From contig CAWIIQ010000001.1 of NCBI GenBank assembly GCA_963836185.1, positions 1,664,001 through 1,728,000 of the forward strand: a stretch of 64,000 bases of DNA. Direction: 5' to 3'. The notes beneath the pieces are model-generated. The model was given only the letters and a program-made list of their open reading frames with translations. It made no database searches and was not told where the DNA came from. Shown one piece after another: positions 30,890-34,241 of the stretch (positions within the stretch are counted from its first letter, which is position 1; each line of letters starts with the position of its first letter). The DNA comes from Candidatus Krumholzibacteriia bacterium (GTDB taxonomy: Bacteria > Krumholzibacteriota > Krumholzibacteriia > Krumholzibacteriales > Krumholzibacteriaceae). Made by a program: the position numbers and the translations under genes.

Positions 30890-30919
30890 TTGACACCCCG
30901 AAAAACCTGCGGTTATTCT
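30890..30919 (+). promoter_or_regulatory. sigma70-type promoter
   Basis: TTGACA-18 nt-TATTCT. Confidence 0.6.
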
Positions 30920-30988
30920 GCGGTTGGTTACTAAGAGACTGTTAAAGACCAGAAGGGCATGGAAAGCTGGAAGAAGGAGGATGGAAAG

Positions 30989-31570
30989 ATGAAGAGACTG
31001 ACATTGACTGCACTGCTCCTTATCGTTCTTACTGTCGGAGCGGTAGCTCACGAGGGATCGATAGGACTGTACACGACCCAGGAAGCGACCGATTGTGACG
31101 CGACGTTTACGCCTTTCCTGTCGAGTAATATCTACGTCATGTATTACAAAAGCGATGCGGGACCAGACGGGATCTCAGGCGCACAGTTCAGGGTAGAGAT
31201 ACCTGCCGGGGGATCGGTCGTAGTACAGTCATTTACGCCTCACCCCGACATCAACTTGACGATAGGCGATATAGCCGGGGCCGGGTTATCCGTCACTTAT
31301 TCGGGATGCGCTGGAGCCGGCTCGGATCTTCTCCTGATCGGAACCATGCAGGTATTTCCCATGGCAGCCGGCAGCTACACTTTCAAGGTGCTGGGCTCGA
31401 CAGACATCAATCCCGAGGAACCAGTACTATCGCAGAGGGTCGCGATATGTGATTTCGACAAGACTGTAGTCGGTGTCCTCGGCGGATGGTATTCGACACC
31501 CGACGGGTCATGCAACGTCGGTACAGAGGAAAAGACCTGGGGAGCTATCAAGGAGATGTACAAGGACTAA
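30989..31570 (+). CDS. Secreted beta-rich protein with C-terminal TWGAIKEMY motif
   Basis: Signal peptide MKRLTLTALLLIVLTVGAVA; AAGGAGG SD; ends CNVGTEEKTWGAIKEMYKD. Confidence 0.85.
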   Translation: MKRLTLTALLLIVLTVGAVAHEGSIGLYTTQEATDCDATFTPFLSSNIYVMYYKSDAGPDGISGAQFRVEIPAGGSVVVQSFTPHPDINLTIGDIAGAGLSVTYSGCAGAGSDLLLIGTMQVFPMAAGSYTFKVLGSTDINPEEPVLSQRVAICDFDKTVVGVLGGWYSTPDGSCNVGTEEKTWGAIKEMYKD

Positions 31571-31599: not shown

Positions 31600-31633
31600 A
31601 GGGGGCCCGGACAGAATACCGGGCCCTTTATTC
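31600..31633 (+). terminator. Terminator hairpin
   Basis: GGGGCCCGG/CCGGGCCCT followed by TTATT. Confidence 0.65.
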
Positions 31634-31729: not shown

Positions 31730-34241
31730 TTATACGACTATATTGACAAGGCGCCCGGGAACGACGATCACCTTCCGGATATCCCTGCCATCGATGATAT
31801 TCCCTGATCCTTTCGTCCTCCAGCGCGAGTTTCTCGAGCTCTTCCTTTGAGGCTTCCTTTCAGCTTCGATACGGGAACGGACCTTTCCATTTACCTGTAC
31901 GACGAGCGTATAGACATCGCCCTTCAGCCAGCCCGGATCAGCTTCGGGCAGGTTCTGGAGGAATATCGACCCATTATTGCCGAGACGCTCCCATATTTCC
32001 TCGCAGATATGCGGCGCCATCGGCGCAAGAAGCAGTAACAGTGTCTTAATCGAGTATTTAAATAGCTCGCAGGCGCGTCGCTGCGCTGATGTGAATTCTC
32101 GGATCCCCGTCCATATACAGGTGTATCTCGTTTACGAGTTCCATCAGGGCGCTTATCGCCGTATTGAAATGGAATGTACCGCCAAGTATATCTCTTTTTA
32201 CCCTGTCGGTCGTCTGCTGTGTCTTGCGGTACAGCGATTTCTGAATATCAGTGAGGCTTTCAGGCTCTAATTTCAGGACTCTCTGAGGCAGCCTCCAGGA
32301 TATCGCTGTGGTTCGCATAGAGCCTCCAGACTCTGTTTACGAATCTGGAAGCGCCCTCAACGGCGCGGTCGTTCCATTCAGCGTCCTTTTCCGGCGGTCC
32401 GATGAAAAGTGTGTATATCCTCACTGTATCAGCGCCGTATTTTTCGAGCAGCGGCTTCGGATCTACCGTATTTCCAGCGCTTTTCGACATCTTGGCGCCA
32501 TTTCGCGTTATCATTCCCTGTGTGAAAAGGCTGCCGAAAGGCTCATCAAACGCTACTAACTTCCTGTCATACAGGAACTTAACGATAAACCTCGAGTACA
32601 GCAGGTGTAGGATCGCGTGCTCGATACCGCCGATATACTGGTCCACCGGAAGCCATTTGTCTACAAGAGACGGAATCAAAGGCCTTCCTGTCATCATCAG
32701 GTGACAGATAGCGCAGGAAATACCAGCTCGAATCGACGAATGTGTCCATCGTATCGGTATCTCGCAGGGCCTTACCGCCGCAGGCGGGACAATCGACGTT
32801 CACAAAGTCATCAGATGCCGCGAGCGGCGACTTTCCATCACCCCTCGGCATGAAGTCGACATCCTCGGGGAGCAACACAGGTAGCTGATCCTCGGGCACA
32901 GGCACGATTCCGCATTTAGCACAGTGTATCATCGGGATCGGAGCGCCCCAGTATCTCTGCCGCGAGATCAGCCAGTCCTTCAGCCGATAGTGGACCGTCC
33001 TGCGTGCCAGGCCCTTTCCGGCGAGAAAATCGGTGATCGTCTCCATCGCATCCCGATTACCGCGTACCGTCGAACTGCCCCGAGTTTATCATCGTCCCGT
33101 CATCGACATATGCCTCTTTCATCTCTCCAGGCTGACTACCTTCGGGCAGTATGACCTGGACCACGGGAATCTCTACTGGAGACTCCTGCACAAATTCGAA
33201 ATCTCTCTGGTCGTGAGCCGGCACACCCATAACTACGCCCGTTCCATAATCCATCAGGACATAGCTGGCAAGGAAGACCGGTATCTTCCATCCTGTGGCC
33301 GGGTTGACCGCGTAACATCCTGTGAAGAAACCCTCTTTTGTAAATTCTGTCTTCTCCCGTTCCTGGAGGCGCAGTTCACGGGCATGGGCGACGAAGGCTT
33401 TACCTTCATCCTCCCTCCCCCCTCTTTCCAGCATACCTTCGGCAAGGGGATGATCGGCCGCTATTACGATGAAGGTCGCTCCGTATATCGTATCCACACG
33501 CGTGGTGAAGCAGTCCAGCACATCATCGCTGCCCTCGAGAGGAAAAGCGACCTCGACCCCTTCGGATCTCCCTATCCAGTTCTTCTGCATCACACGGACA
33601 CGTTCGGGCCATTTGTCAAGCTTTGCAAGATCATCGAGAAGCCTGTCAGCATAATTCGTTATCCTGAAAAACCATTGCTTGAGATCTTTCTGCTCGACCG
33701 TGCTGTCGCATCTCTCGCACTCCCCTCCCACCACCTGCTCGTTCGCCAGGACAGTCTTGCATGAAGGGCACCAGTTCACTGATGCTTCAGCCTGGTAGGC
33801 GAGCCCGGCCTCGAACAGTTCGCGGAAAAGCCATTGCGTCCATTTGTAGTAGTCCGGTTTGCAGGACGCGACCTCTCTCGACCAGTCGTATATCACACCC
33901 CACTGATCGAACTGTTTTTTCATGTAGGCTATATTATCTTCTGTCCATTTTGCCGGCCTGATATTGTTCTTGATCGCGGCATTCTCCGCGGGCAATCCGA
34001 ATGAGTCCCAACCCATAGGAGCCAGGACATTCCTGCCCTCCATCATCTTGTAGCGCGCAAGAGCATCCCCGATGATATAGTTCCGGCCGTGCCCGACATG
34101 AAGGTATCCCGAAGGATAGGGGAACATCATGAGGCAGTAATATTTGTCGTCAGTATCGGCAGAATCACAGCGGAACAGATCTCCCCAGCGATCATGCCAT
34201 TTTTTTTCAGCTTCCCTGAAGGGAAAGAAATCCTCCATCAT
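31730..34241 (-). CDS. leuS: Leucine--tRNA ligase, multiple frameshifts
   Basis: [61 protein letters not shown] spread over five ORFs. Confidence 0.95.

Follow-up and report, generated by a model that had tools for sequence, protein, structure and literature searches.

The protein encoded at positions 30989-31570 of the window (the whole 64,000-nucleotide stretch of DNA analysed, from an uncultured Krumholzibacteriota genome, G000, with a completeness of 92.5%) ends in a short tail, and the locus raises the question whether this tail is a sorting signal and, if so, to which system it belongs. The original prediction had taken it for the lineage-specific tag of an undescribed surface-anchoring or secretion system. 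The tail was found in the slot of the C-terminal domain (CTD) of type IX secretion system (T9SS) cargo, often beside a second sortase copy, and it is therefore likely to be an undescribed surface-sorting signal. This part of the prediction has indirect support, whereas the tail system appears to supplement the type IX-like machinery that the genome already has, rather than to be a separate machine. The gene has the following features.

30890..30919, + strand: sigma-70-like promoter TTGACA-18-TATTCT, weak (10/12 consensus matches)
30974..30980, + strand: ribosome-binding site AAGGAGG, from the sequence
30989..31048, + strand: predicted Sec signal peptide, residues 1-20 (sequence, simple heuristic; model helix at residues 3-16)
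31049..31513, + strand: predicted cohesin-fold beta-sandwich, residues 21-175, with four Cys (AlphaFold2 model, mean pLDDT 78.7)
31517..31567, + strand: C-terminal tail VGTEEKTWGAIKEMYKD, residues 177-193, with Trp184 at 31538-31540 (homologues, genome profile)
31601..31632, + strand: likely intrinsic terminator, a GC-rich hairpin followed by TTTATT (-22.3 kcal/mol for a 45-nt stretch)

The open reading frame (30989-31570, +) comprises 193 aa, has its ATG start 8 nt past AAGGAGG and encodes a protein ending in CNVGTEEKTWGAIKEMYKD; the tail sequence given in the original prediction was real and omitted the last two residues, KD. The ribosome-binding site, the weak promoter-like site and the hairpin after the stop codon fit a stand-alone gene, as had been predicted. 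Support for the promoter is weak, since the promoter scan found 3 sites against 1.2 ± 0.9 expected by chance, and a stricter terminator scan listed no site after the gene. The adjoining leuS (window 31730-34241, -) was broken into four open reading frames by frameshifts, and SprA (G000:C2:330573-337046) and several tailed genes were also frameshift-split, suggesting indel errors in the assembly.

The N-terminus of the protein is hydrophobic and its four cysteines lie at residues 36, 107, 154 and 175, in line with the predicted signal peptide and cysteine count. A single-sequence fold model was poor (pLDDT 44) and was set aside; the alignment-based model (pLDDT 78.7) predicted a cohesin fold for residues 20-172, which agrees with the beta-rich protein read from the sequence before. 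The best structural match of this model was 2vo8 (Z 13.9, rmsd 2.3 over 125 residues), the 18 best structural matches were all cohesin-containing entries (Z 13.9 to 9.5), and the top Foldseek matches were cohesins as well. No Pfam or NCBIfam model matched the protein, PF00963 (cohesin) included; PF00963 occurred only on a neighbouring Atlas cluster (0.89), in 16% of its members, and the nearest Atlas clusters were mostly from Candidatus Krumholzibacteriota. The protein shares its predicted cohesin fold and a C-terminal tag with single-cohesin anchors, namely the sortase-anchored ScaE of Ruminococcus flavefaciens (2zf9; Z 8.8) and the non-cellulosomal 2vo8 and 2xdh, but it is only 7-14% identical to them, has a disulphide-type Cys pattern and belongs to a diderm host, and any dockerin binding by it is putative. 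The residues W-G-A-I-K at the end of the protein were invariant in 39/39 homologues with overall identities of 45-100%, a set biased to tailed proteins because the tail was among the search words. A helix was predicted for residues 183-192 at low confidence (pLDDT <50), and the tail is not transmembrane, as the best 15-residue hydropathy in the last 30 aa was -0.28.

Across the genome, a strict tail regular expression gave 11 C-terminal matches and 3 elsewhere, and an iterated tail profile retrieved 31 open reading frames scoring 29-51 among 62,955 six-frame ORFs. A 32nd profile match (T32, score 24.5) was a shadow frame of rpoB and was discarded as false; the next-best score was 15.5, and no internal motif copy scored >16 with the profile. 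In 31/31 tailed ORFs the Trp was located 8-11 residues ahead of the stop codon. The 30 passengers long enough for comparison formed 19 single-linkage groups, so the motif is not confined to one homologous family. By Pfam they include TED+Big_1 (thioester + Ig), LTD (lamin-tail), beta-helix and FG-GAP proteins; one is a choice-of-anchor W domain protein (NF041928, 186 bits), six further tailed proteins besides the window protein are cohesin-like, and adhesin-like passengers reach 1230 aa. The simple heuristic assigned a signal peptide to 23/31 tailed ORFs versus 816/2576 background ORFs. Among the other 8, one had an in-frame signal peptide (by eye), six had one in an overlapping upstream frame and one had a partial hydrophobic stretch. 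The expectation that the tail would recur at the very end of many unrelated exported proteins, enriched for signal peptides, was thus borne out. No Pfam or NCBIfam model covered the tail, no CTD model matched any tailed protein scanned, and neither a 15-residue hydrophobic stretch inside the tail nor an NCBIfam PEP-CTERM-type match was found. The tail is a real, widespread and apparently undescribed C-terminal tag.

The mean helical hydrophobic moment of the tails was 0.42 compared to 0.33 for shuffled sequences, and their end is net basic. Together with the predicted helix this would suit an amphipathic membrane-binding helix without dedicated machinery, holding the protein on the periplasmic face of a membrane; a Bacteroidia-labelled membrane protein (L163:946-1533, +; multi-pass) with a similar end, TWGQIKDLFR, would agree with it as well, and shows that the motif is able to arise, in this case probably by convergence, on proteins that are not secreted. 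The moment is modest, however, and an invariant W-G-x-I-K is not needed for lipid binding. A membrane helix also leaves unexplained the alternation with the CTD and the adjacency to one PorU paralogue (26/30 versus 0/30 loci) described below, and we consider it quite unlikely.

The genome contains SprA, 111 matches to FlgD_ig (FlgD-type CTD), 11 PorV-family matches and 7 C25 domains. Its canonical PorU scored 554 bits against a cut-off of 420 (NF033707) and is followed by PorV. GldM/PorM (TIGR03517) and PorZ (PF21544) were not found in this 92.5% complete genome; both were found in the Cytophagales tail carrier G465, and PorZ also in the tail carrier G153. For several tailed passengers, the same genome also encodes paralogues with a CTD at the end. 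A profile of the cohesin-like domain was built without the tail, and its best 150 matches sorted by their C-terminus into 58 with a CTD, 57 with a strict tail, none with both and 35 others. Inspection by eye showed the tail in 14 of these 35 as well, either followed by a longer extension or altered at one residue, which brings the tail to about 71 of the best 150. The tail and the CTD are thus alternatives on homologous passengers. In Rosettibacter, the single-copy tailed protein and a paralogue with a CTD-like end (by eye; no Pfam match at E 0.001) from the same genome are 33% identical, and the start of the tail, VS-SVKR, aligned in register with the start of the CTD, LT-GIKE. An exchange with PEP-CTERM on the choice-of-anchor W protein was considered and rejected: 116/120 homologues had the tail, the other 4 a variant of it, and none PEP-CTERM.

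For CTD cleavage the published consensus reads PT/GI, the residue at +1 being small (PMC11969387), and the Bacteroidota tails begin with a motif resembling the PorU cleavage site, PT/AV. The pattern [TS][GAS][VIT] preceded the Trp in 61/69 Bacteroidota tails versus 3 and 0 in control windows, a count that comes from one orthologous family and not from independent events. The Bacteroidota regular expression fitted 12/115 Krumholzibacteriota tails and 0/18 Zixibacteria tails. In G000 the CTD linkers resembled the first six positions of the tail more closely than upstream windows did, a marginal difference, as 22/500 composition shuffles reached this score. The cleavage-site reading is therefore good in one family and loose elsewhere. 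PorU cleavage was reported to be sequence-independent (PMC4804311), and the last 22 residues of Hbp35 were reported to suffice for secretion and attachment of GFP (PMC11969387).

Known T9SS signals are folded beta-domains of at least 40 residues. Like a type A CTD (TIGR04183 / PF18962; here FlgD_ig, PF13860), the tail is a C-terminal signal on unrelated passengers with a Sec signal peptide, has the same slot on homologous passengers and, in Bacteroidota, a cleavage-site-like start, and occurs in genomes with SprA, PorV and PorU. It differs in having 17 residues and a predicted helix where a type A CTD has a beta-sheet or sandwich, and it is far shorter than even the shortest CTDs of 40-51 aa described for Prevotella intermedia (PMC11969387), as the original prediction had pointed out. 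It also lacks the CTD motifs B, D and E, which PorV binds, and matches no CTD model; this speaks against a T9SS signal. The LPXTG/sortase, PEP-CTERM/exosortase, GlyGly-CTERM and MYXO-CTERM systems likewise place a short tag on many unrelated exported proteins, with many tags to one candidate transpeptidase, but the tail has no transmembrane helix, which had also been predicted, and the candidate enzyme described below is a secreted C25 peptidase. Since its use is T9SS-like, yet it failed both the CTD test and the PEP-CTERM-type transmembrane test, the tail was filed under neither class.

The candidate enzyme is encoded in the same genome.

G000:C2:80601-84740: PorU-B, a second PorU-like C25 peptidase with His-Cys intact

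In G000, PorU-B lies directly after three tailed genes and one dockerin-like gene. Tailed genes were located upstream of PorU-B at 26/30 near loci (same order) and 29/40 distant loci (other families of the phylum), and at 0/30 loci of the canonical PorU, a control restricted to near genomes and about 1.1 kb of upstream DNA; the loci beside PorU-B are kin. A stricter profile gave 26 near, 27 distant and 0 at the canonical PorU. Three of the near loci without a tail had <300 bases of upstream DNA present, and at 11/40 distant loci a tail was lacking within 4 kb. A further 20 loci from Eisenbacteria were examined; a tail was upstream of PorU-B in only 5 of them, mostly 2.5-7 kb off. Six Eisenbacteria genomes had no pattern match, and two of these carried variant tails near PorU-B. 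PorU-B was matched in 148/151 Krumholzibacteriota and 60/61 Eisenbacteria genomes, the weakest matches not being placed on the tree one by one. In a quick tree, which left out seven gingipain-like or partial rows, a PorU-B clade separated from the canonical PorU (49 versus 10 rows, SH-aLRT 100). The catalytic His and Cys were kept in 59/59 C25 rows and invariant in 91/91 PorU-B rows.

The best match of the PorU-B profile was PorU 6ZA2 (E 5e-47), and members of the profile scored 417-506 bits. With the PorU of Porphyromonas gingivalis (PDB 6ZA2; NF033707) and with 'PorU2' (NF052324), PorU-B shares the long architecture, the C25 His/Cys and the C-terminal FlgD-type domain, whereas it falls below the curated cut-offs (130.6 bits versus 420 for NF033707 and 73.7 versus 450 for NF052324) and has the active-site signature Q-x-H and C-H. 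Its identification with NCBI's PorU2 was rejected on the latter score. It also differs from known PorU in that it has no adjoining PorV gene and has tailed cohesin genes upstream, while the canonical PorU-PorV pair is located elsewhere in the genome.

The dockerin-like gene that heads the cluster (G000:C2:77711-78367, +) encodes a secreted protein whose dockerin-like end contains a duplicated calcium loop. The protein lacks both the tail and a CTD, matches no Pfam model and has a 63% identical paralogue at C3:60498-61049 (-). Matches to it were found in 16/62 distant loci searched. The classical dockerin model PF00404 had one match in the genome, to a gene other than this one. Downstream of PorU-B (G000:C2:84820-86861, +) lie an anhydro-MurNAc kinase-like fragment and a SpoIID/LytB gene, both related to the cell wall. 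The cohesins, and not the tail, may be the reason why the PorU-B cluster has stayed together. The tail could also be a mini-dockerin for cohesin-fold partners, so that tailed proteins would be assembled on CTD-bearing cohesin scaffolds or carried along with them; the seven cohesin-like tailed proteins, the cohesin-like domains of CTD-bearing proteins and the dockerin-like gene at the cluster would be consistent with this. The tail has no calcium loop, however, a separate dockerin-like protein is already there for the cohesins, and the tails of Ignavibacteria and Zixibacteria are on single proteins that are not cohesins. A mini-dockerin is therefore very unlikely in our view.

A DNA pattern for the tail matched 141/151 Krumholzibacteriota genomes (993 matches; 6 with the reversed control) and 55/61 genomes of the phylum Eisenbacteria (1038 matches, control 1), with up to 82 matches in one Eisenbacteria genome. 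The recurrence predicted for these two phyla was thus confirmed, while the tail turned out not to be lineage-specific. When the GTDB collection was scanned with a pattern free of the stop codon, at least 124 stretches matched, and among the matches listed (80 stretches) 80/83 lay within 14 residues of a stop. In the phylum Zixibacteria 18/61 genomes had 20 matches (control 2), of which 17 belonged to one small secreted family ending in TWGKIKALF[KR], mostly adjoining rex. The Zixibacteria family (L286-L303) is single-copy, with proteins of roughly 135 aa and the rex repressor gene mostly nearby; no Pfam model matched it, and tblastn against G000 found none. In Ignavibacteria (the class of Rosettibacter primus) 50/51 genomes matched, 49 with exactly one copy (control 5). 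Matches occurred in 91/301 Bacteroidota genomes and in 13/151 genomes of the order Cytophagales, where the tail reads PTAVQRSWGSIKSMFR, nearly always as one copy. Kin are not independent in these counts, and exact patterns miss variants. Translated single-copy loci encode a secreted protein of 130-150 aa, fibronectin type III-like according to some sources, without a solved-structure match below E 0.8. Named carriers of the single-copy form include the cultured species Rhodocaloribacter litoris (WP_228350195.1), Cyclonatronum proteinivorum (WP_124245596.1), Hymenobacter jeongseonensis (WP_196283470.1) and Flexibacter flexilis (WP_143083833.1), as well as cultured Rosettibacter and Melioribacter species.

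PorU-B was found neither in the 61 Zixibacteria genomes (best 210 bits) nor in the 51 genomes of the Ignavibacteria class (best 179 bits). Because these samples carry single-copy tails, PorU-B was rejected as the universal reader of the tail; it tracks the expansion of the tail and not the tail itself. The co-occurrence profiling proposed earlier was uninformative within Krumholzibacteriota and Eisenbacteria, where the tail and PorU-B are both near-universal. What this analysis adds is the single-copy tail of Ignavibacteria, of other Bacteroidota (cultured species among them) and of Zixibacteria, together with the lack of a PorU-B match in the Ignavibacteria and Zixibacteria genomes sampled. 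One near-invariant copy in 49/51 genomes of the Ignavibacteria class would fit a regulatory role, in which the tail is a motif read in the periplasm by a protease or a sensor (a degron, for instance) and the single-copy protein signals the state of the envelope. Such a role is hard to reconcile with adhesin-like passengers of up to 1230 aa, and extensions of at least 10 residues after the motif are tolerated, which argues against the reading of a free C-terminus; we regard it as extremely unlikely.

All 120 homologues listed for the single-copy protein in Ignavibacteria end in the tail, and 91/120 are identical over the last 16 residues, while their whole-protein identity to the query is 52-93%. 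This conservation, together with a helix part far better conserved than the linker and with the 11-21 PorV-family matches in tail-bearing genomes, would suit an uncleaved, T9SS-linked docking peptide by which a PorV-family barrel or a PorU-family protein holds the passenger on the surface non-covalently. Type B CTD proteins, which associate with PorP-like barrels, would be the model for such docking. Cognate pairs of shuttle and signal have been reported (PMC12618676; PMC9143113) and lend it support. In the clusters listed gene by gene, however, no PorV paralogue lies beside the tailed genes; the conserved neighbour is, by its sequence, a catalytically intact peptidase, and the Bacteroidota form retains a cleavage-site motif. 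Docking without cleavage is thus unlikely, although it deserves some weight.

The reading that we favour, and that we hold to be somewhat probable, accommodates the signal peptides, the strict C-terminal position, the alternation with the CTD and the conserved cluster of tailed cohesin genes with PorU-B: the tail would act as a minimal signal of the T9SS type that PorU-family sortases cut off, and the expanded set would be served by PorU-B. We infer that in the tail a cleavage-site-like linker is joined to a short amphipathic helix. The linker would be [VIT]-[AGP]-[TV]-E-E here and [PVT]-[TS]-[ASG]-[VI] in Bacteroidota, and the helix W-G-x-I-K-x-L-[YF]-R would replace the CTD beta-sandwich as the recognised part. 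After Sec export, a tailed protein would pass through SprA, shuttled by one of the 11 PorV-family barrels, and a PorU-family enzyme would cut at the linker and transpeptidate the new end to an acceptor in the envelope; for CTD cargo of P. gingivalis, cleavage and joining to an acceptor have been shown (PMC4560394). The ordinary enzyme would act on the single-copy protein, and PorU-B on the expanded set. The tail may have begun on one conserved protein served by the ordinary machinery; in Krumholzibacteriota and Eisenbacteria, duplication of the sortase may have accompanied its spread to dozens of passengers. Under this best explanation, the window protein would be a single-cohesin surface anchor. 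A broader proposal, which we put forward tentatively and consider rather doubtful as a whole, is that the tail represents a third class of T9SS signal: a 17-residue cleavage-site-plus-helix tag that originated on an ancient single-copy FCB protein and was expanded in Krumholzibacteriota and Eisenbacteria into a second channel for cargo, which has PorU-B as its dedicated sortase and builds a covalently anchored cohesin layer on the diderm surface.

In the literature searched, no description of the tail or its motif was found, although subscription papers and supplements may hold a mention, and the search terms for the tail were absent from the preprint by Haft (10.1101/2023.06.07.544157). In keeping with the original prediction, no curated model or paper that we found assigns the motif to a known pathway. 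If a helical tag of 17 residues were a true signal, current ideas of what translocon, shuttle and sortase recognise would have to be revised, and dozens of unannotated proteins in each genome of two large uncultured phyla could be given a location. A third signal class, if true, would provide a portable peptide tag for covalent surface display. As the single-copy form is present in named cultured species, any export and cleavage would be readable directly by proteomics.

Several related loci were observed elsewhere in this genome and in others. A Patescibacteria-labelled genome of 1.1 Mb (G156), in which no C25 or SprA was found, encodes two neighbouring secreted proteins (L205:927-1769, -, and L206:867-1769, -) with STWGAIKALYR near the N-terminus, in one of them ahead of an M23 peptidase domain; these copies are possibly mimicry of a host tag or derive from a misbinned contig. 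A second C25 protein of roughly 1800 aa that is not PorU-B is encoded in Ignavibacteria (L279:9533-15064, -), and in G153 its gene and the single-copy tailed gene are about 15 kb apart. In G000 the canonical PorU-PorV pair is followed by an M6-like metalloprotease with a CTD (G000:C1:2032947-2036216, -; NF052323, 183/600 bits), and a gene of similar size occupies its position in G153 (L283:2422-5442, -). One Eisenbacteria genome (G162:C12:19515-27834, -) carries two tandem PorU-B genes and a third match on another contig.
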